Below are positions 2,775-32,221 of a DNA stretch of 64,000 nt, piece after piece. The translations under genes and the position numbers were made by a program. A model generated the notes under the pieces. It was given only the letters and a program-made list of their open reading frames with translations, had not been told where the DNA came from and did no database searches. How positions within the stretch are numbered: position 1 is the stretch's first letter; each line of letters begins with the position of its first letter. Origin of the DNA: Candidatus Aenigmatarchaeota archaeon (GTDB lineage Archaea; Aenigmatarchaeota; Aenigmatarchaeia; GW2011-AR5); assembly GCA_016187335.1 (NCBI GenBank), contig JACPJW010000001.1:736001-800000 (forward strand). Reading direction: 5' to 3'.

Positions 2775-2866
2775 ATTCCCTCTTATTGCCCGCCCAATAT
2801 TTAAGGGTTCGGCATCGAACAGTTTTCCAATGCCGAAGGCGAGAATCGAACTCGCGACCCCCACAT

Positions 2867-2955
2867 TTCTCTTCAACGCGCATGCCGCTCAGAACTCATA
2901 ATTTTCAATTTCTTTGGTCTTTCTTTGGTCAAACTTTCTTTTCAAGAAAGTTTGT
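2867..2955 (-). other. tRNA-Met intron (canonical position, relaxed BHB)
   Basis: Junctions CTCATA|ACAAAC and GAGAA|ATGTGG; central helix CTC/GAG. Confidence 0.8.
2926..2954 (-). repeat. palindromic element copy at the 5' end of the tRNA-Met intron
   Basis: Minus strand CAAACTTTCTTGAAAAGAAAGTTTGACCAAAG. Confidence 0.75.
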
Positions 2956-2975
2956 TATGAGTGTGGTGCTCTACC

Positions 2976-3041
2976 ACTGAGCCACTTCGGCTTTCCGTTT
3001 TGATCAAACTTTTTTGAAAAGTTTGACTGAGCCACTTCGGC
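2976..3041 (-). repeat. 16-bp direct repeat of tRNA-Met nt 1-16 flanking a palindromic element copy
   Basis: GCCGAAGTGGCTCAGT at 3041-3026 and 2991-2976, separated by CAAACTTTTCAAAAAAGTTTGATCAAAACGGAAA. Confidence 0.9.
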
Positions 3042-15609: not shown

Positions 15610-16032
15610 TCAGACGTCCAAAATCACTCTGGCAATCCATTTCTTTTCTTTTTTCAATTCAAAGTTGTGGTAAGTCACGGCCTTAACGTCCACAAGCAGC
15701 TCATGCTTTTCCATGTCTAATTTCTCTCCGGATACCTTTGCCGTTAATACAAGGTTCTTTTCGTCTATTTTTACGGAAAATCTGCTCAGCAGAAGCTGTT
15801 TGGCGTCCTTCAGGAAAACTATTTCCTGCAAAAAATTGAACAGCAGCGATTCCAAAGAATCGCTCCTCAGCTTTATTGTTTTCGTCACCTTCGGCTTCAC
15901 TTTCTTCAGATCCCTGACCATCGTGTTCGTGACAGCCAGGCCCGCTGACTCAAAAAGCTCTTTCAATGTCCCGCCCGAGGCTTCAAAGGCCACGTCAGCT
16001 ATGGCAACGTCCTTGAAGAATCTGTAGGGCAT
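15610..16032 (-). CDS. archease (RtcB activator)
   Basis: YRFFKDVAIADVAFEASG, VKAVTYH, VILDV C-terminus. Confidence 0.93.
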   Translation of the reverse strand: MPYRFFKDVAIADVAFEASGGTLKELFESAGLAVTNTMVRDLKKVKPKVTKTIKLRSDSLESLLFNFLQEIVFLKDAKQLLLSRFSVKIDEKNLVLTAKVSGEKLDMEKHELLVDVKAVTYHNFELKKEKKWIARVILDV

Positions 16033-16036
16033 TTTT

Positions 16037-16789
16037 TCACCGTTTTGATCCTTTTGATACAACTTTTTGGAAAAGTTGTTTTCCGTTCAGGTAAGCTTTC
16101 CTTTTGCTTTCAGGAAATTTTTCTATCGCATACCTGAGCGTCGTCCTAGGTATTTTCTTGTAGTGCTTTCTTAAAAACTGCTCGAGCAAGCGTTCATCCT
16201 TCTTTCCCAGCTCGCGAAGCATCCACCCAACTGCTTTCTGGATGAGGTCGTGCTTGTCTTTAAGAAGGATTTTTGCGAGCTTTATCGTATCATCATACTG
16301 GTTGTTTCTCAGGAAGTAAAATGTTGCAATGATGGCCATTCTCCTTTCCCATATATTGCCTGATGCCGCAAGCTTGTACAAAACCGATCTGTCTTCGTTC
16401 AGCAGGTATCTGCCAAGAATCTTGTCGGCGCTCAGGTCAACAATGTCCCAGTTGTTGATGTATTTTGTCGATTTAAGGTAAAAATCAAGGATCTCCTTTT
16501 TGCGTTTAACGTCGCCTTCTTTTTCAGCTTTCTCATAATTATGGACCAGAAGCAGAACGGCGCACAAGCGCTCTTCATGTATTTTTGATTTCAGCAATGC
16601 TTCCGCTTCCTTTAGCGGCAGCGTTTTATGTTTTATTGCAACTTTCCTCGTTTCCGGCACTGGCACGCCTAAAAATACATCGCCTTCCCCGTATTGCCCG
16701 GGGCCTGTCTTGAAAAATCTCGCGGATATCCTGGATTTTTCTGCGCTTCCGAGATTCGCGAGTTCCGCTCTAACAGCTGTTAATGACAT
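16037..16789 (-). CDS. DNA alkylation repair protein (AlkD family)
   Basis: FFKTGPGQYGEGD, NNWDIVD, WERR, KAVGWMLRE, RTTLRYAIE. Confidence 0.92.
   Translation of the reverse strand: MSLTAVRAELANLGSAEKSRISARFFKTGPGQYGEGDVFLGVPVPETRKVAIKHKTLPLKEAEALLKSKIHEERLCAVLLLVHNYEKAEKEGDVKRKKEILDFYLKSTKYINNWDIVDLSADKILGRYLLNEDRSVLYKLAASGNIWERRMAIIATFYFLRNNQYDDTIKLAKILLKDKHDLIQKAVGWMLRELGKKDERLLEQFLRKHYKKIPRTTLRYAIEKFPESKRKAYLNGKQLFQKVVSKGSKR
16043..16079 (-). repeat. palindromic element copy inside the 3' end of the AlkD ORF
   Basis: CAACTTTTCCAAAAAGTTGTATCAAAAGGATCAAAA, translated as QLFQKVVSKGSK. Confidence 0.8.
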
Positions 16790-23486: not shown

Positions 23487-24065
23487 ATGAAATCTCTGAA
23501 AATAGACGATTTAAGCCGAACAGAAGCACGAAAACTCATTATGAAACTACCGAGAAACAAGGCATTTGTTACAGATGTTCTGAAAGACAGAATAAAAATC
23601 TATTTTACAACTGATGGTGAGAAACAGAGCAAGAAAAATGGAAAAAACCTGAAAGGTCATTTTGACATAAAAATACATTTTGAAGGAGAACCTAAAAGAA
23701 AGTTCAGTTACATTAATGATATATTTATCGATTTAATCAAAAATGAGCATATCTTGAGTAAAGAAGAAAGTGAAATTTTTCTAAAAGCCCTAAAAGATTC
23801 AATAGAGCTAGTTTCCTTAAAAGAAATATACAAAAAATATCCAGAGCTGAACGAAATTGAAAAAAAGAAATCTGGTCATTCAATTGAATTCTTATTGGCA
23901 ATTCTGAAAATCCTTGCACTACAGGAAGATGTAAATTATTGGGGTATAAACCCGAAAACCAAAAAGAAATATGAAGGCAGAGAAAAACCTTATAATGCTT
24001 TGTATGATTTGCTTGTAAAGAAAATGCCTTTAACCCACGTCACAAGAAAACACATGCTCTATTAA
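23487..24065 (+). CDS. hypothetical protein, candidate type II restriction endonuclease
   Basis: Convergent with and overlapping the MTase by 4 bp; no recognised family. Confidence 0.45.
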   Translation: MKSLKIDDLSRTEARKLIMKLPRNKAFVTDVLKDRIKIYFTTDGEKQSKKNGKNLKGHFDIKIHFEGEPKRKFSYINDIFIDLIKNEHILSKEESEIFLKALKDSIELVSLKEIYKKYPELNEIEKKKSGHSIEFLLAILKILALQEDVNYWGINPKTKKKYEGREKPYNALYDLLVKKMPLTHVTRKHMLY

Positions 24066-24826
24066 ACAAATACTTCTAATGGCTTGATTTTTGACAATCG
24101 CTGTTTGCCGATATCTACATATTTTGGATTTATGTCTATGCCAATTGAATTTCTGTTTAGTTCTTTAGACGCTACGCAAGTTGAAAAGCTACCAGCAAAT
24201 GGATCCAAAACTGTATCTCCTTCATTACTACTCGCCTTTATGAAGATTTTTAGCAAAGACACGGGTATTTGGCACGGATGAGGCGTTTTATCTTTGCTCA
24301 CATTCTTCACAAGGTTAAACTGAAATACATCATAGGGAGTTCTACCATTACTGCCATTTTTTAGTCTTTCCTGTATGCGTCTATCGTTTGGATTTTTGTA
24401 AGGTTCTGCTACATCTTTTCTATTGAATTTGTTATTTTTAGTTTTGGCAAAAAACAAAATAGAATGTTGTGTTCTTGTAAAATTAGATTTTGAATGACCT
24501 GTGTTGGTAGGATAGTGCCATGTCATCCATCTTTTGAAAACCATGTGTTTTTGAAGAAAAGGTAATATGTAAGCGTTGTTTTCTGGATAATTAAACAGAT
24601 ATAAACTACCATCTTTTTTCAGTAATCTCATACATTCAGTAAGCCACAATTTACACCATTCAATATACTCATCAAATTTTTTCTTGTCCTTATAAACACC
24701 GCCATAGTCTTTGCCAATATTGAAAGGCGGATCTGTTATAATCAAATCTATGGATTCAGAAGACATTTTCTTCATTATTTCTAAAGAATCTCCAACAATG
24801 CACTTATGTTCTGTTTTCATAACCAC
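24062..24826 (-). CDS. site-specific DNA methyltransferase (N4/N6, beta class)
   Basis: Motif IV DPPF precedes motif I DPFAGS; HPCQIP. Confidence 0.93.
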   Translation of the reverse strand: MVMKTEHKCIVGDSLEIMKKMSSESIDLIITDPPFNIGKDYGGVYKDKKKFDEYIEWCKLWLTECMRLLKKDGSLYLFNYPENNAYILPFLQKHMVFKRWMTWHYPTNTGHSKSNFTRTQHSILFFAKTKNNKFNRKDVAEPYKNPNDRRIQERLKNGSNGRTPYDVFQFNLVKNVSKDKTPHPCQIPVSLLKIFIKASSNEGDTVLDPFAGSFSTCVASKELNRNSIGIDINPKYVDIGKQRLSKIKPLEVFV

Positions 24827-24829
24827 ACC

Positions 24830-24964
24830 TTACTTCTTTACATAATTGGCAATAAAATCTTCAAGAACTTCGGTAGCAGTTTTCTTTTTTTCCATACACT
24901 TTATTCGGAACTTATGCCACAAATCCCCATTAACATTCAGGCTTATTTTCTTTGCCCTGTCCAT
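24830..24964 (-). CDS. small ribbon-helix-helix protein (not in ORF track)
   Basis: MDRAKKISLNVNGDLWHKFRIKCMEKKKTATEVLEDFIANYVKK; SD GGTGA; directly upstream of the MTase. Confidence 0.7.
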   Translation of the reverse strand: MDRAKKISLNVNGDLWHKFRIKCMEKKKTATEVLEDFIANYVKK

Positions 24965-25010
24965 GTAATCACCTATACTCCTATATGTATAGATACTTTT
25001 AAATAGTTTA

Positions 25011-25030
25011 TCCTATATAGATATATAGGA
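25011..25030. promoter_or_regulatory. palindromic operator between divergent RHH and transposase genes
   Basis: TCCTATATA-GA-TATATAGGA perfect 9-bp arms. Confidence 0.55.
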
Positions 25031-25047
25031 ATAAAGGAGATGTTGAC

Positions 25048-25950
25048 ATGAAAACTAAAACAAAACGTGGCTATAAAGACCTTTCATATTTCAAGCCAAA
25101 AGAATGTCCGTTTTGCCAAGCCAAAGAAGTAATAAAATGGGGTTTCAGATACAACCACATAACGAAGAAAAGGCGTTACAAATGCAACAAATGTAAGAAG
25201 CTCTTTGTAGTTGATGACGGCTTCTGGAAAAGGAAAAAGCAGAGAGAGTTCATAGCGCAGTGCATAGACCTTTATGTTAATGGCATGTCGCTACGCAAGG
25301 TCAAAACACACATAGAGCAGTTTTCAGAAACTACGATAAGTCATACAACTATAGCAAGATGGCTTAGGAATTATGCAATTCTTGTAAAGGATTTCACGGA
25401 TAAACTGCCGATAGAAACAAGCGGTATCTATCATGCAGATGAGATTTTTGTTAAATGCAACGGGGAAGAAAACTATTATTGGGATGTGATAGACGCACAT
25501 ACACGCTTTCTTGTGGCTACACACTATTCAGATAATAGAAACTCTCAAAATGCCAAAATTCTATTCTTGAAAGCAAAGGGCAGAGCCAATCTGCCTAACA
25601 TAATCTATACGGATGGTTGGAGAGCATATCAAAAGGCGTTCAGAAAAGTATTCTGGAATCGCTACAAAGAAAACAAAGTGGATTTCATACGCATAATCGA
25701 AAAAGAGGACACAAGAAACAACATAGTGGAAAGGATACAGGGAACTATCAGAGAAAGGATTAAGGTCATGCGTGGATTCAAAAATCCAGAATCCGCTAAG
25801 GCACTTCTTGACTTGCTGATAGTTTACTACAATTTTATCCGAATACATCAAGGCATACGAATGACGCCTGCGGAGATGTGTGGAGTAAATCTTAATCTTG
25901 GACAGAATAAGTGGTTGGGATTGATTTATAGAAGTAAAAACAAGTTCTAA
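25048..25950 (+). mobile_element. IS6/IS240-like DDE transposase with N-terminal zinc ribbon
   Basis: CPFC..CNKC; HADE, YTDG, NNIVER (D-D-E); RGFK. Confidence 0.85.
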
Positions 25951-26900
25951 GCTTTTGGTGGCAAATTATTTAAGATTCCTGAATCTACAGGTGTTGCTAT
26001 TCCTACTCCACTCTGTATGTTTTGATTCATAGCATTAATTATATTATTTTGAGTTTGGAGCACTAATTGAAATTCATAAGATATGTTACTTGGAATATTT
26101 GCTGTTTGTATACCTGCAAGATTTTCTCGTCCATTAATAATTCCTATGACTTTTCCACTATTCACTAAAAATACAGGACTTCCACTATTCCCACTATTTA
26201 CAAAGGAATTTACTGTTATAGTCGGTTTGTTGTTTCTAAGACCTTTGAACGATATTATTCCTTCATGTGTTACTTGTGCTGATGAAAAAAATGGATAACC
26301 TATAAATGCTACATTTGAACCTACATCATAAGAATCACTTGTGCCTAATTCTACAGGTGTAAGATTATAATTAACTTTTATTATTGCCATATCCAAGTCT
26401 TCATTTCCAAAAAATATATTTGAAGTAATAATTTGAGCAGATAATTTTGTTGAATTGCTTAAAACAACAAGAATTGTAGGAGAATTTTCTATTACATGTT
26501 TTGCTGTTAATATGTAACCATCAGAACGGATTACAAATCCTGCTCCACCACTTCCCCATACATTACCATTATTATCAACATATAATTCTGTTGTCTGAAT
26601 AAAATTAGCTTTATTAGAAGGAGTAATAGGAACTAAAATTTCAACTACAGAATCACGAAGAGTGTATATAGTCTGCGTTAATCCCTTATTATCGTAAAGT
26701 TGGTCAATTTTATAATTTATGTTAGAAAGTTGTTGAGTCAGATTTACATTAGAAGTACTAATTTGTTGGCTTAATCCAAAACCCACAACACCAACAACAA
26801 CAATCGTAATTATGGTAGAGATGACGAGCATCTTCTTGTCCATGTCTAAATCTTGATTTTTGCGATATTTAAACTCTGTAAAAAACCTTTTTGGCAACAT
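25947..26900 (-). CDS. trypsin-like serine protease (S1C), membrane anchored
   Basis: ILTAKHV, DMAIIK, GNSGSP. Confidence 0.9.
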   Translation of the reverse strand: MLPKRFFTEFKYRKNQDLDMDKKMLVISTIITIVVVGVVGFGLSQQISTSNVNLTQQLSNINYKIDQLYDNKGLTQTIYTLRDSVVEILVPITPSNKANFIQTTELYVDNNGNVWGSGGAGFVIRSDGYILTAKHVIENSPTILVVLSNSTKLSAQIITSNIFFGNEDLDMAIIKVNYNLTPVELGTSDSYDVGSNVAFIGYPFFSSAQVTHEGIISFKGLRNNKPTITVNSFVNSGNSGSPVFLVNSGKVIGIINGRENLAGIQTANIPSNISYEFQLVLQTQNNIINAMNQNIQSGVGIATPVDSGILNNLPPKA

Positions 26901-27055
26901 TTTTTATCGCCTTTTAAAAAGGTGGACAATTAAATACCAACCGAAGACGTTACAGAACCTAATATTTTTTATTTTCATAAACTACAATAACACATTATCA
27001 TGTAAAATCTTTTTAAGCCCTGAAATTTTATTATTCAAATAGGTTGGCAAGATTT

Positions 27056-27457
27056 TTACCAGTTGCATTTTCTGTTTATTCCATCACAAAAATAAGTTAG
27101 GCCGTCAAATGTTATATTCTCTTGGTTTTGACACATTATTTTAACATTTTCATCATTACAGGGATAGTTACAACCAATCTCTCTACTTTCAAAATTTTCT
27201 GTTTCAGTATAAGGTACTCCGAAGCATCTCTTTTCTCCAGTAGGAATACCAAAACAAATATCACTATAACCACAATCTGAACAATTTGTGTGTATGAATC
27301 TATACTTCATTCCAAAACAAGACTGTTCATAATAATGTAAACCATGGGGAGGACACACAGGACCACATAAAATACCTCCAATATTTCTTGGAAAGAAGAA
27401 TCCTATTAAAGCGATTATAATGATTCCAATTATCAAAAGCAAATATTTTCCATGCAT
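27056..27457 (-). CDS. Cys-rich secreted hypothetical protein
   Basis: Signal/TM helix followed by many Cys. Confidence 0.6.
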   Translation of the reverse strand: MHGKYLLLIIGIIIIALIGFFFPRNIGGILCGPVCPPHGLHYYEQSCFGMKYRFIHTNCSDCGYSDICFGIPTGEKRCFGVPYTETENFESREIGCNYPCNDENVKIMCQNQENITFDGLTYFCDGINRKCNW

Positions 27458-27609
27458 AAATAACAGTAGAATTGAGCTTTATTTAAACATATTGAAAACT
27501 TTTGGTTTTCGCCTAATAGAGAGCTGGATCTCGGTTGGACTTAACAAACATTATGAGAACTTTCAAGAATTTAGGTCGAGAGCCTGCAAGGCTCGAGCCG
27601 TATAAGCCC

Positions 27610-27693
27610 TGTTAAGTGAGGCGAGGACGAAGTCCGAGAGTGCAAAGCCCCAAGGATTTACAAAGTAAATCCGCAGAGTTATTTTAGTGGTGC
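27610..27693. repeat. left inverted repeat (interrupted) of the ARH cassette
   Basis: TGTTAAGTGA (27610-27619) and TTATTTTAGTGGTGC (27679-27693), split by a 59-nt hairpin-rich insert. Confidence 0.7.
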
Positions 27694-27737
27694 AAATCAA
27701 TAAAGGTTTATATATCGGTGTATTCTTCTACTATATA

Positions 27738-29063
27738 ATGAAAAAAGACTGCATTTTGAGTGGATTAATAGGTTTATGTGTAGGGGATGCTTTAGGTGTA
27801 CCTGTAGAATTTAAGAGCAGAGATGAATTAAGTAAAAATCCTGTTGAAAGTATGATTGGAAATGGAACATACAATCAACTTGCCGGAACGTGGTCTGATG
27901 ACAGTTCTTTAACATTTTGTTTAGCAGAAAGTCTATGTACAGGATATGATTTAAATGATTTAAGTCTTAAATTTTGTAGATGGTTAAACGAAGGTTATTG
28001 GACACCATATGGAAAGGTATTTGATGTTGGGATAAGTACCAAAAAAGCCATTCAAAATTTATGTAATGGTAAAGAACCTACAAGATCAGGAGGAAATAAG
28101 GAACAAGATAATGGTAATGGCTCCTTGATGAGGATACTCCCTATTGCATTTTTTACAAATGATATGTATGTTAGCACTATGGTAAAGGTGGTTGAAGAAG
28201 TATCTTCTTTGACACATAGACATAATAGATCAATAATTGCTTGCTCTGCCTATGTTTTTATTGCTAATAATATAATAAGAGGAAAAAACAAAAAAGAAGC
28301 TTTTAGATTATTAAGATTAAATCTTCCGTTTTTATTTAGTAAAGAAAAGGGTGAAGAATATAACAATGAGTTAAAGCATTTCAAAAGAATATTAGATAAG
28401 GATTTCTTTAATTTACCTGCAGAAAAAATTAATTCTTCAGGTTACGTTATTGACACTTTAGAAGCTGCTTTTTGGTGTTTTATGAATAATGATAATTATA
28501 AAGACACTGTTCTTTCTGCAGTAAATTTAGGGGAAGATACAGATACTGTTGCTGCAATAGCTGGGGGATTAGCAGGGATATATTATGGAATAAATAACAT
28601 CCCAAAAGAATGGATTGACGCAATAGCAAGAAAGAAAGAAATTATCTATTTAGCAAAAAAACTTGATGAATCTCTTAAAAAAAGATGGTCGTATATTGGT
28701 TTCGAACTATTGGATAGAATAAATATTAAAAAACCATCTAAACATATTATCAAACAAAACTATGAAAAATATATCAAGGATTGTGAAAATGAAGTAAGAG
28801 GTGTTTTGCAGTTTTCAGCTTATTCTTTTGGATATCCAGAATCAGATCATGCGGTTGTCGATGCTGGGGAAGTAAATAGACAGGTTTGGAGATATTATCA
28901 TGCTAACAAAAAATTCGATATCTTTTCATTAGGACATTTATGCACTGCAGTTTTTTTTATTTCAAGAGCAAGGCATCACCAAGGGAGTTATCCTAAGAAA
29001 CCAGAAGAAGGAGAAGTTGCTATTTCTAAAGAGATTGTTAGAAGAATACATCAATTACTATAA
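27738..29063 (+). CDS. ADP-ribosylglycohydrolase with C-terminal extension
   Basis: VGDALG, WSDDS, GNGSLMR, LTHRH, DTDTVAAIAGG; start moved to MKKDC. Confidence 0.93.
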   Translation: MKKDCILSGLIGLCVGDALGVPVEFKSRDELSKNPVESMIGNGTYNQLAGTWSDDSSLTFCLAESLCTGYDLNDLSLKFCRWLNEGYWTPYGKVFDVGISTKKAIQNLCNGKEPTRSGGNKEQDNGNGSLMRILPIAFFTNDMYVSTMVKVVEEVSSLTHRHNRSIIACSAYVFIANNIIRGKNKKEAFRLLRLNLPFLFSKEKGEEYNNELKHFKRILDKDFFNLPAEKINSSGYVIDTLEAAFWCFMNNDNYKDTVLSAVNLGEDTDTVAAIAGGLAGIYYGINNIPKEWIDAIARKKEIIYLAKKLDESLKKRWSYIGFELLDRINIKKPSKHIIKQNYEKYIKDCENEVRGVLQFSAYSFGYPESDHAVVDAGEVNRQVWRYYHANKKFDIFSLGHLCTAVFFISRARHHQGSYPKKPEEGEVAISKEIVRRIHQLL

Positions 29064-29072
29064 TAAAATATA

Positions 29073-29099
29073 GCACCACTAAAATAATTTCACTTAACA
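29073..29099. repeat. right inverted repeat of the ARH cassette
   Basis: GCACCACTAAAATAA-TT-TCACTTAACA, reverse complement of the two left segments. Confidence 0.75.
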
Positions 29100-29175
29100 A
29101 CTATTAAGCGAACTCTTAAGAATTTTCGCTCGCAAAAGCTTGTAGTGCTGTTTTGTGAACAATTGAAACAGCAGC

Positions 29176-30674
29176 CTACCCTTTCACATTCCCTATCGGC
29201 ACGAGCTTGCAGACCTTCTTTGAAAGCCCTGCCGTATGAACCACTTCTATCACTTCGTCAATGTCCTTGTAAGCGCCGCCTGCTTCCTCGGCTAAGCCTG
29301 CAAACGAAACAGTTTTTACTAAAATCCCTTTCTTTTCCATGTCCCTTTGCAGTTTATCGCCGCGCCACATCTGCCTTGCGCGCGTCCTGCTCATTGTCCT
29401 GCCTGAGCCGTGGCACGTGGAGCAGAACGTTTCCGCAGCCTTATCGCCGCCGACAAGCAGGTACGAGCCCGTTTCCATTGAGCCTCCGATGATCACCGGC
29501 GAGCCGTCGTTCCTGTACATTTCCGGTATTTCCTCGCGGCCTGCGGGATAGCTGCCTGTCGCACCCTTCCTATGGACTAAAACCTCTTTTGTCTGGCCGT
29601 CTACTTTGTGCTTCTCCAGGGATGCCCGGTTGTGAGCGACGTCGAATACCATGTGCATGTCCATGTCCTCGGCGCTGCGCTTGAATACGGAAGAAAACAC
29701 CTCGCGGACGCGGTGCAAAATAACTTGCCTGTTCGCGAAGGACATGTTTACCGCGCATTTCATAGCAGTGAAATAGTCCTGTCCCTCTGGCGAGTTGAAA
29801 GGCGCGCACGCAAGCTCGCGGTCAAGAATCTTTATTTTATATTTCCTTTCCATGACGTTGAGAAATGACTGAAGGTAATCCGTAGCAACCTGGTGCCCGA
29901 AGCCGCGCGAGCCGCAATGGAACATGATTACAATTTGCCCTGGGAACAAGCCCCATTTCTTCGCAAGCTCTTTGTTGTGTATATTTTCTTCCTTTACCCA
30001 CTGGACTTCAAGATAATGATTTCCCGAGCCGAGCGTGCCTATCTGGTTGAAGCCGCGCTCTACTGACCTGCTGCTTATTTTTCTTGAATCCGCGCCTTCC
30101 ATCCTGCCGTTCAGTTCGCAGCGCTTCAGGTCTTCTTTCCATCCGTAATCATGCTCAACGCACCATTCCGCGCCTTCCTCAACGACCTTGCGGAACTCGT
30201 CCTTCGTTAATTTAACAAATCCTGTCGAGCCTACGCCTGCAGGCACCCTTTTGAAAAGCATGTCTACAAGCTCTTTCAGCTTGGGCTTCACGTCGTTTAT
30301 AGTAAGGTTTGTAGTAACCAGTCTCATCCCGCAGTTCACGTCGAATCCGATTCCGCCAGGAGATATAACTCCTTCGTTAGCATCAAAAGCAGCAACTCCG
30401 CCGATTGGGAATCCGTAGCCCGATTTGCCTCTCTTCAGATACCTGAAAAGATATGACCGTCAGGCATACAGAACGCGTGATTGATAATTCCGGGAAGCGT
30501 TGCGACGTTCGCTATCTGGTCGAAAACCATCAGGTCCATATCGTCAATGAGCTTTTTCGACGCGTACATCCGCGCAGGGACCTTCATACCCTGCTTGAAT
30601 GAAGTAGGTATCTCCCAGATTACGTCGCTGATTTTTTTCAGTTCCGGTTTTTTCAAATTTGTCCCCCAAACCAT
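29176..30674 (-). CDS. rtcB: RNA-splicing ligase RtcB, interrupted by a 29-nt intron (489 aa if spliced)
   Basis: Exon1 30674-30453 ends MPDGH and exon2 30423-29176 starts SGYGFPIGG. DVNCG, GSGNHY, HCGSRG, HRKG and STCHGSGR are all present. SD GAGGTGA before ATG 30674. Confidence 0.93.
30424..30452 (-). other. putative BHB-type mRNA intron in rtcB
   Basis: A-TCTTTTCAG-GTAT-CTGAAGAGA-GGCAAA: 9-bp stem, in-frame TGA, frame restored on removal. Confidence 0.8.
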
Positions 30675-31513
30675 TAATTCACCTCCTCTAATTTTGAAAA
30701 TTGGTTTTCTTTTATAGTTAAACAATAGTATAAACTTCCCCAGTTATTTTCCCATGGTCCTAATATTTTTGATTTAATTCCAATTGAGTTTAATCTATTC
30801 CTTAGCTCATTAAGATTTCTTTTTATAATCGAATTCATTCTGATTTCCTTTCTTTTAATACTTAACCTACCATTTTCTCTTATGAATTTTATTATTTCGG
30901 CTTTTTCTTTTGGTAATGTCCATTCATACGACTGATAGGAATTTAAGGCTTCTTCTAATTTTTCTTTTTTACGTGGATGAAGAAACCCTATGTACTTTTC
31001 AAACTTAAGCAAATCATCCTTACCACATATAGTAAGCGACCATATGTTTCTATTTTTTCTTTTCTTGATTGTAGAAGTAATTTTGAAATGTCTTTTCATG
31101 ACTTTTTTGATTTGGTAAAGACCTTTCTTATTTATTGAATCTAGGCCAATTTTCCTGTCCTTTGCTTTGACAACAGAGACCCATCCATCACAATCAAAAT
31201 ACGATCTTAACCAACTAGAAAGTAAATTTTTGGATAATTTCGGCAAAGACCATTTATCTGAATAATAAGTGAAATTTTTTGTTAAAATAAAGAAAAGATT
31301 TTTATTTTGAATTTTGCATCTTTCTTCTGTTAAGACTGGTCTTATTCCAAATTTTCTGTGAAATTTTTCTTGAAAATCTTTCAACAAAGTAAGATTTGTA
31401 TTTCTTAAACCAATATAGTAGTATTTGTGCTTCTGTGATTTAGGATTTGTAATTACGTAACCATCAGCACAAAGATAGCCATGTATAGAAGCAAGATTTT
31501 TGTTGAATTTCAT
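30674..31513 (-). CDS. free-standing LAGLIDADG endonuclease-like protein
   Basis: IHGYLCADG and WLRSYFDCDG motifs; no intein splicing residues at the ends; TAATG overlap with the rtcB start. Confidence 0.85.
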   Translation of the reverse strand: MKFNKNLASIHGYLCADGYVITNPKSQKHKYYYIGLRNTNLTLLKDFQEKFHRKFGIRPVLTEERCKIQNKNLFFILTKNFTYYSDKWSLPKLSKNLLSSWLRSYFDCDGWVSVVKAKDRKIGLDSINKKGLYQIKKVMKRHFKITSTIKKRKNRNIWSLTICGKDDLLKFEKYIGFLHPRKKEKLEEALNSYQSYEWTLPKEKAEIIKFIRENGRLSIKRKEIRMNSIIKRNLNELRNRLNSIGIKSKILGPWENNWGSLYYCLTIKENQFSKLEEVN

Positions 31514-31603
31514 CTTGATAATTATGTTGCCATTTATTTAAACCTAATGTTCGTTAGTCAAATTTTTCTAAAGATATAAATTAATTTGTTAGAAAAAAGC
31601 GTT

Positions 31604-31702
31604 TCAGCGCTTCCTTCTTACTTTCTTCTTTATCGCTGCGCCGGCTTTTTTGACGTGCATTGCTGCTGCGCTGAATGCCTTCTTTATTCTTTTTCTTACC
31701 AC
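31604..31702 (-). CDS. 32-aa Lys/Arg/Ala-rich small protein (not in ORF track)
   Basis: GTG start after SD AGGTGA: MVRKRIKKAFSAAAMHVKKAGAAIKKKVRRKR. Confidence 0.6.
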   Translation of the reverse strand: MVRKRIKKAFSAAAMHVKKAGAAIKKKVRRKR

Positions 31703-31754
31703 TGTATCACCTGGTTAATCATGTGAAGAAGATGTTAAAATAAGTTTTCAGCCG

Positions 31755-31901
31755 CTATTTCTTCATCTCTTCCTCGTAGCCTTCGCTGAATTCCTTGCCG
31801 GCTTTCTTTGCGCGTTTCGCGGCCTTCTTTATGGCCTTTGTGCCCTTCGCAGCAACGCGTCCTGCTTTCCTGGCAATTTTCTTCATTCTCAGCTTTGCCA
31901 T
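31755..31901 (-). CDS. 48-aa Lys/Ala-rich small protein (not in ORF track)
   Basis: SD AGGTGA; MAKLRMKKIARKAGRVAAKGTKAIKKAAKRAKKAGKEFSEGYEEEMKK. Confidence 0.7.
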   Translation of the reverse strand: MAKLRMKKIARKAGRVAAKGTKAIKKAAKRAKKAGKEFSEGYEEEMKK

Positions 31902-31966
31902 GCATATCACCTAATTAATAAAGTAGCAGGCGATAAGTTAAAAAATGGCACTAATGTATTATACGC

Positions 31967-32221
31967 ATGGCTGAATTGGAAGTAATAGGATTCCTTGCTG
32001 GTTTTTTGGTGGCTTTTGCTTTATCCCCGCAGCTGATTAAAACATGGAAGACAAAATCCACGAAGGACATATCGCTCCATTGGACATTGCTGCTGATGAC
32101 CGGATTGTTGCTATGGATAATCTACGCGATTGTGAACAACATTGTTCCTTTGGCGGTTTTCGCGGCTATAGAGTTTTTGATGGCAACTGCCCTGTTCATA
32201 CTCAAGCTAATTTACAAATGA
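31967..32221 (+). CDS. SemiSWEET/PQ-loop transporter
   Basis: FALSPQLIKTWKTKSTKDIS. Confidence 0.9.
   Translation: MAELEVIGFLAGFLVAFALSPQLIKTWKTKSTKDISLHWTLLLMTGLLLWIIYAIVNNIVPLAVFAAIEFLMATALFILKLIYK

Follow-up and report, generated by a model that had tools for sequence, protein, structure and literature searches.

A probable bulge-helix-bulge mini-intron in the RNA ligase gene rtcB of an Aenigmatarchaeota archaeon and its possible tie to a linked LAGLIDADG endonuclease gene

Can the message of an RNA ligase depend on the very ligase that it encodes? This question is raised by the rtcB gene in a 64,000-nt stretch of DNA from Candidatus Aenigmatarchaeota archaeon (assembly GCA_016187335.1, contig JACPJW010000001.1, positions 736,001 to 800,000 of the forward strand; hereafter the window, whose own coordinates are used throughout). 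The list of open reading frames (ORFs) splits RtcB into two pieces, 30435-30725 and 29176-30339. An annotation made from the sequence alone (the first-pass annotation) had proposed that a 29-nt intron of the bulge-helix-bulge (BHB) type, the kind that EndA cuts and RtcB joins in archaea, interrupts the ligase's own gene. The comparative evidence presented here strongly supports that proposal, and on the sequences at hand we consider it quite probable that the insert is a genuine RNA-level mini-intron spliced by EndA and RtcB. The interrupted gene is laid out as follows.

30453-30674, minus strand: rtcB exon 1, 74 codons, from the ATG (30674-30672) to the last codon, His CAT (30455-30453)

30424-30452, minus strand: 29-nt mini-intron, consisting of A, the stem strand UCUUUUCAG (30451-30443), a GUAU loop (30442-30439), the stem strand CUGAAGAGA (30438-30430), GGCA (30429-30426) and AA

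29176-30423, minus strand: rtcB exon 2, 415 codons plus the stop codon (29176-29178), matching PF01139 at 528 bits

30453-30458, minus strand: 5' splice-site elements in exon 1, namely the central-helix strand GGUC (30458-30455) and the bulge bases AU (30454-30453), with the cut predicted after 30453

30418-30423, minus strand: 3' exon bases UCGGGC, of which U is the third base of the 3' bulge (cut predicted before 30423) and the remainder pairs with GCCUGA (30465-30460) in the outer helix

The minus-strand text across the insert reads TGT ATG CCT GAC GGT CAT, then the 29 nt, then TCG GGC TAC GGA TTC CCA ATC. Deletion of the 29 nt yields a single frame for a 489-residue RtcB with CMPDGH|SGYGFPIGG at the joint (the vertical bar marks the joint or cut here and below); the residues across the joint in the spliced protein are CMPDGHSGYGFPIGG, and with PDGHSGYGFPIG the protein has the same motif as the closest intronless relatives. 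When the insert is retained, translation meets an in-frame UGA inside it and the product is 79 residues long. Exon 2 could be aligned end to end with residues 69-481 of Pyrococcus horikoshii RtcB (1uc2), which places the intron after the codon equivalent to His67 of that protein, and the RtcB motifs FDxNC, GSGNH, H-x-GSRG, DVAHN and STCHG are all kept in the alignment. We take the catalytic residues of the P. horikoshii enzyme to be Asp95/Cys98, His203, His234, His329 and His404. For exon 1, a tblastn alignment with an intact relative spans residues 12-81. The Shine-Dalgarno sequence GAGGAGGTGA precedes the rtcB start, and the rtcB ATG overlaps the stop of the upstream gene (TAATG). Placing the junction at offsets 0 to +3 always retains the His, and offset 0 (H|S) agrees with the closest intronless relatives (PDGHSGYGF) as well as with the junction common to 21 relatives. 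The first-pass annotation had described the insert and its bounds, the restored PDGHxGYGFPIG motif in an otherwise complete 489-residue protein, the truncated product of the unspliced message, and the neighbouring 29-nt segments that would also restore the frame; each of these was borne out by the minus-strand text, the ORF list, the translations, and the Pfam and P. horikoshii comparisons.

How would such an insert be recognized? In secondary structure predictions, a 57-nt stretch around the insert gave a minimum free energy (MFE) of -21.1 kcal/mol, with the MFE structure accounting for 74% of the ensemble; its z score against dinucleotide shuffles was -3.52, and 0 of 200 shuffles were equally stable. 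The MFE structure is composed of a 6-bp outer helix GCCUGA/UCGGGC, a 2-nt CG bulge, the pairs GUC/GGC, an AUA bulge, a 9-bp stem and the GUAU loop, with an AAA bulge on the opposite strand. If a G.A pair is allowed between the G in the CG bulge and the first base of the AAA bulge, a four-position central helix GGUC/GGCA results, consisting of G.A, G-C, U.G and C-G (three standard pairs plus G.A), with AU|A and AA|U as its bulges. The stem, bulges and central helix thus drawn agree with those of the first-pass annotation. The 5' side (GGUC, AU|A and the 9-bp stem) is canonical, as in relaxed BHB motifs of the HBh' type, and the outer helix is offset because the 3' bulge faces a 2-nt bulge. As modelled, the insert is a relaxed BHB, the strict form being excluded. 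The 3' cut AA|U would lie 2 nt beyond the 3' end of GGCA, at the position symmetric to that of the 5' cut; AU|A with AA|U is the only pair of cuts that both releases 29 nt and leaves the His in place. Twin hairpins with 7-nt loops, as used by IRE1, were not found, both junctions lying in the bulges of one BHB-like fold.

Is the insert peculiar to this genome? In a set of 60 relatives from the same order, several rtcB genes were broken at the same Pfam position or had internal stops; their sequences revealed inserts directly after the His codon and others 7-9 nt further on. When 371 genomes of the class were screened with a strict first-site pattern, 20 matched, against 0 matches to a reversed control, and a protein search added one further metagenome-assembled genome (MAG), giving 21 genomes from at least six GTDB families. 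These 21 introns are 21-36 nt long, with lengths leaving remainders of 0, 1 and 2 on division by three in 10, 2 and 9 cases; an in-frame stop occurs in 20 of them, and the remaining one shifts the frame. With the intron removed, the frame then continues for about 415 codons and ends at the normal stop, save where a second mini-intron or an intein sits about 30 codons later.

The sequences of these inserts vary around a shared architecture. Common to all 21 are GGYC-AY|N, a hairpin and GRCN-NN|U, and the first base of exon 2 is U in every first-site (A1) intron (21/21). GGYC is constant save for its wobble base, and the second and fourth pairs of the central helix (H2 and H4) never change. Its first pair is G.A in 18 introns and G-C, G-U and G.G in one each, and the third (H3) is U-A in 7, C-G in 8, U-G in 4 and C.A in 2. 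In the stem, positions 1-5 are paired in 103 of the 105 cells, with two to four pair types per position. Overall, 81.6% of cells pair, compared with 44-56% when the partners are slid, and none of 2000 column shuffles reached this level. An RNAalifold consensus, run independently, returned the same helices with double changes in 6 of the 10 pairs. Inserts at the same codon with covarying stems, which the first-pass annotation would lead one to expect in relatives, are present at the identical site in twenty other genomes.

A looser pattern recovered about 42 genuine inserts of 18-36 nt in the 371 genomes (at least 43 with genome G183, matched by the strict pattern only), together with roughly a dozen matches in the control and three evident chance matches. 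The inserts occupy at least four positions within 15 nt of coding sequence (after the His, inside the Tyr codon, after the Tyr and after GYG), and about a quarter of the rtcB genes at least 60% identical to this one are interrupted within that segment. Presence and absence differ within single genera, for example g92 and g111.

Other elements are found in rtcB as well. A second hot spot for mini-introns lies about 30 codons downstream, by the catalytic Cys motif (loci L125, L130, L035, L133 [GIGFD|INCG] and L136 [PGG|IGFD]), where the intron of genome G169 has a clean 4-bp central helix CGAU/GUCG and an AU|U bulge; the rtcB of the window is uninterrupted there. Inteins occur at NCG in many rtcB genes of the order, giving open frames of 900-1000 residues, and one intein sits at GYGF|C (L044). 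As read from these sequences, rtcB is a multi-element hot spot for inteins and mini-introns. The rtcB gene of the window, which belongs to family f1, is 74-80% identical to those of families f3, f20, f23 and f27, compared with 51-72% within its own family, which suggests that rtcB alleles have been exchanged laterally within Aenigmatarchaeota.

Are the 29 nt real at the DNA level, and is this the gene the cell uses? The insert sequence occurs once, and rtcB is present in one copy, in the 1.01-Mb, two-contig, 91%-complete genome of this groundwater archaeon; a second intact rtcB, which the first-pass annotation had named as a possible sign of a pseudogene here, was not found in it. Logan contigs from the probable source study cover 30200-30700 with 0 differences, and those from an independent groundwater study of 2017 cover 30200-30434 and 30436-30700, again with 0 differences, both of the latter holding part of the insert. 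Because contigs of an independent study carry it, the insert is not an artefact. The contigs of the independent run stop and resume at the tip of the hairpin (30434-30436), which is probably a break of the assembly graph at a palindromic stretch and not biology. An intronless joint was not seen among the DNA contigs, which cannot reveal rare variants, and an exact search of metagenome contigs for the predicted spliced junction gave no match.

Does the organism have the machinery to remove the insert? The genome encodes, outside the window, one EndA of 202 residues (G000:C2:410505-411113), an alpha-type protein with both Pfam endonuclease domains (PF02778 and PF01974). The RtcB cofactor archease, already recognized in the first-pass annotation, is indeed encoded in the window, by an ORF that runs to 16062 and not, as given there, to 16032. 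The one other ligase family searched for, PF09414 (ATP-dependent RNA ligase), was not found in the genome. Two features of the window belong here.

15610-16062, minus strand: archease gene, matching PF01951 at 133 bits (match at G000:C2:751613-752002, about 15613-16002 of the window)

2831-2991, minus strand: tRNA-Met gene with an intron of about 89 nt, matching RF00005 at 57.8 bits and missed by default ARAGORN

In the whole genome, default ARAGORN reported four tRNAs, two of them without an assignable anticodon, and RF00005 had 14 matches, several of them 104-161 nt long; taken together, these counts indicate that most tRNA genes are hidden by introns. The intron mode of ARAGORN gave unreliable calls, and a naive BHB scorer applied to the tRNA loci was too noisy to define native BHB rules. 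DPANN lineages whose alpha-type EndAs bear an extra loop have many disrupted, hard-to-predict tRNA genes and EndAs of broad specificity (PMC5829648), and the pattern of tRNA interruption seen here fits this published one. A genome-wide search of protein genes for BHB geometry combined with ORF fusion gave 8,693 raw matches and 116 after stricter filters, with rtcB recovered; the other matches are mostly chance hairpins and neighbouring genes, so that this search cannot tell whether rtcB is the sole interrupted protein gene.

The reading of the insert as a BHB-type intron is drawn from these strands together: a site shared across species, lengths in all phases, stops inside the inserts, covarying helices, a single-copy and intact gene, the presence of EndA and archease, and an independent assembly. 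In the mechanism that we propose, EndA would cut after CAU (AU|A) and before UCG (AA|U), each time 2 nt 3' of a strand of the GGUC/GGCA helix. Pre-existing RtcB, with archease, would then join the 2',3'-cyclic-phosphate and 5'-OH ends, restoring PDGH-SGYGFPIG and the 489-residue enzyme.

Why should an intron be placed in this gene? Directly upstream of rtcB lies the following gene.

30674-31513, minus strand: free-standing LAGLIDADG homing-endonuclease gene, 279 residues, matching PF14528 in two stretches (90 bits, E = 1e-25)

The stop of this gene lies 222 nt upstream of the intron and overlaps the start of rtcB, and the 279-residue ORF holds two LAGLIDADG-type domains in one chain. Close homologues (52-59% identity) were found in only 12 of the 371 genomes. 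All 12 adjoin rtcB at its 5' end; nine share its strand and lie just upstream, and three are divergent. In all 12 the adjoining rtcB carries a mini-intron in the PDxH-xGYGF segment, at whichever of the four positions; three of the copies contain stops and appear to be decaying. Such a gene was found beside none of 22 intronless loci (each with at least 900 nt of upstream sequence) and beside 7 of 20 intron-bearing ones. A free-standing endonuclease gene thus adjoins an intron-bearing target and is absent from uninterrupted alleles, the arrangement expected of a cassette. The similarity of the endonuclease to its homologues (53-60%) is about the same beside an RtcB that shares 46% identity with that of the window as beside one that shares 79%. 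No tblastn match (E <= 1e-3) was obtained between the endonuclease and the intein-bearing rtcB loci that were fetched, and hence no link to those inteins.

The confinement of the endonuclease to rtcB 5' ends with interrupted alleles, its similarity regardless of RtcB identity, and the closeness of rtcB genes across families together form a signature of homing. The endonuclease most likely cuts intronless rtcB DNA in the conserved coding segment for PDxH-xGYGFP; the mini-intron would interrupt this target and thereby shield its carrier, and when a cut allele is repaired, the endonuclease gene and the intron would both be copied. The host would tolerate the insert because its tRNA-splicing machinery removes it, and the dependence of RtcB synthesis on RtcB would be a by-product, with some coupling to splicing capacity possible. 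We judge the chances that the intron belongs to a homing cassette with the endonuclease gene to be roughly balanced. More tentatively still, the two may constitute an undescribed archaeal mobile element engaged in collaborative homing, in which a host-spliced BHB intron of 18-36 nt, in place of a ribozyme intron or an intein, destroys the target within an active-site motif.

Several observations weigh against a spliced intron or against its membership in a cassette. The insert lacks the strict hBHBh' form, with two 3-nt bulges, exactly 4 bp between them and flanking helices in register, and the EndA encoded here is a single short alpha-type enzyme, a type classically regarded as strict. No transcript, circular intron or junction peptide was seen for the rtcB intron. 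About two thirds of the intron-bearing loci have no endonuclease gene beside them, the target of the endonuclease within rtcB is a presumed one, and the association of endonuclease and intron (Fisher p = 0.003 and 1e-12) is counted over related genomes that are not independent.

Could the insert be something other than an EndA/RtcB intron? It might be an assembly error, or the gene might be dead: rtcB is frameshifted as written, and one run's contigs break at the hairpin tip. Yet contigs from two studies carry the insert without differences; the tRNAs of this genome need splicing and it has no other rtcB copy, the two exons are conserved and intact, and dozens of species have stop-containing inserts at the same site in frames that are otherwise open, which makes a pseudogene or artefact barely credible. 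A single programmed frameshift was also considered and rejected, since insert lengths in all three phases, with stops inside, mean that one frameshift or read-through could not serve all. A hairpin kept in the mRNA could instead be hopped over by ribosomes, as in T4 gene 60 or the byp elements of yeast mitochondria, and a short hairpin-forming insert with an in-frame stop in an essential gene recalls such translational bypass. However, the take-off and landing codons are unmatched (AUC follows CAU, AAA stands directly before UCG, and no CAU or CAC precedes UCG), a hop from Gly to Gly (GGU to GGC) would drop the conserved His, and the stop does not directly follow the take-off codon and varies in position among relatives, which show no conserved codon pair. 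What is conserved is the BHB central helix with its bulges across both junctions, and bypass is accordingly very improbable. The relaxed BHB and the short alpha-type EndA leave some room for removal of the RNA by a nuclease and ligase other than EndA and RtcB, or by another processing route; such machinery is very improbable, given that 29 nt is far below ribozyme size, that the conserved geometry is what EndA measures (cuts 2 nt 3' of each strand of a four-position helix), that no PF09414 ligase was found in the genome, and that many non-canonical tRNA introns of this genome depend on EndA and RtcB for their splicing (PMC5829648).

A further alternative accepts the splicing and differs only on why the intron exists. 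According to it, the intron was selected so that RtcB output tracks EndA/RtcB activity, as a positive-feedback loop or a sensor of splicing capacity. The intron does sit in the ligase gene itself and is widespread there, relatives have the second hot spot in the same gene, and the unspliced mRNA is a 79-residue dead end. On the other hand, even members of one genus may differ in having it, many close relatives lack it, and the positions and lengths of the inserts vary; the linkage to a homing endonuclease and the inteins in the same gene are marks of selfish elements aimed at conserved sites. As intron-bearing tRNAs already tie translation to RtcB, an mRNA intron adds a direct dependence that is nothing qualitatively new, with little extra control. 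Of the feedback idea put forward in the first-pass annotation, the dependence of RtcB on itself thus stands as a logical consequence of splicing, whereas a selected sensor function found no support and appears rather unlikely. A selfish homing cassette accounts for the presence of the mini-intron better than a dedicated feedback sensor does.

What does the rtcB intron resemble? The closest known case is the intron in cbf5, the gene for the aCBF5 pseudouridine synthase, in Crenarchaeota, which is 16-44 bp long, BHB-like and spliced by EndA (Watanabe 2002; Yokobori 2009, PMC2738675). According to its authors in 2009, cbf5 was the only archaeal protein gene with confirmed splicing, and a nuclease, of which they found none, could not be encoded in so short an intron (PMC2738675). 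Both are very short BHB-like introns in a protein gene that disrupt a catalytic motif, occur in in-frame and out-of-frame copies, and are gained and lost among relatives. They differ in that the host gene here is the pathway's own ligase and the lineage is DPANN (Aenigmatarchaeota), and in that rtcB has several positions within 15 nt, a second hot spot and a linked free-standing LAGLIDADG gene. Moreover, cbf5 splicing was shown experimentally, whereas that of rtcB is inferred from sequence. In our literature searches, BHB introns in rtcB were not found described, in agreement with the first-pass annotation, and neither was a free-standing endonuclease linked to them.

The rtcB insert also shares with the BHB introns of archaeal tRNAs and rRNAs a 3-nt bulge, a four-position helix, a second 3-nt bulge, flanking helices, and cuts 2 nt into the bulges; relaxed BHB variants occur in lineages with many non-canonical tRNA introns (PMC5829648, PMC4090602). 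In contrast to those introns, the substrate here is a coding region of mRNA in which splicing must be exact to the nucleotide; the codons (GGY CAY / UNN GGN) also limit the bases that the exon parts of the motif can take. Phages provide known cases of collaborative or trans homing, namely for T4 mobE with I-TevIII (PMC2790892) and for F-CphI with the psbA intron of cyanophages (PMC6083498). There, as at rtcB, the endonuclease gene lies beside and not inside the interrupted gene, the presumed target is conserved, and the endonuclease is found only with interrupted alleles. Unlike the phage introns, which are self-splicing group I ribozymes, those of rtcB are 18-36 nt long, would be spliced by host proteins and reside in a cellular archaeal genome, and the cleavage specificity is predicted here.

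The logic of HAC1/XBP1 is similar in its tiny frame-shifting intron (26 nt in XBP1), its cutting and rejoining without a spliceosome and, in metazoans, its ligation by an enzyme of the RtcB family. In that system, however, the nuclease is IRE1 acting on twin hairpins with 7-nt loops, and the reaction is regulated by stress and yields a transcription factor, whereas rtcB would be processed by EndA at a BHB. Finally, the inteins of RtcB, which are selfish elements with LAGLIDADG domains in the most conserved motifs of the protein, are comparable, the difference being that inteins leave the protein and the mini-introns would leave the RNA.

Experimentally confirmed archaeal mRNA splicing rests essentially on cbf5 (PMC2738675), and our searches found no later report that goes beyond it. 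If the rtcB intron is genuine, it would represent a second, widespread family of archaeal mRNA introns, located in the ligase that completes the reaction, and would mean that the tRNA-splicing machinery edits messages in DPANN archaea and that automatic gene calling goes systematically wrong on an essential gene, reporting it as split or broken. It would also offer a natural minimal mRNA substrate for EndA/RtcB biochemistry and circular-RNA tools, and would make RtcB synthesis depend directly on RtcB itself, with a physiological effect that is open to measurement. The association with the endonuclease provides a testable model in which tiny protein-spliced introns arise and spread by shielding their carriers from a linked homing endonuclease; if the cassette is real, it would show a route for protein-spliced introns into protein-coding genes and between archaeal lineages.

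Two further observations concern the surroundings of the gene and its relatives. The G+C content is 0.32-0.40 in the part of the window from 24000 to 32000, compared with about 0.47 elsewhere in the window. This low-GC stretch, which may be an accessory or mobile region, includes an ADP-ribosylglycohydrolase-like ORF (27687-29063) and the LAGLIDADG gene, and borders rtcB. The exon 2 product shares 64-72% identity with RtcB encoded on contigs of many MAGs that carry bacterial labels (Syntrophobacteraceae, Latescibacterota, Gemmatimonadota and others; loci L047-L121). These proteins are nearly as close to it as many archaeal relatives are, a similarity that could be due to inter-domain transfer or to mis-binned contigs.

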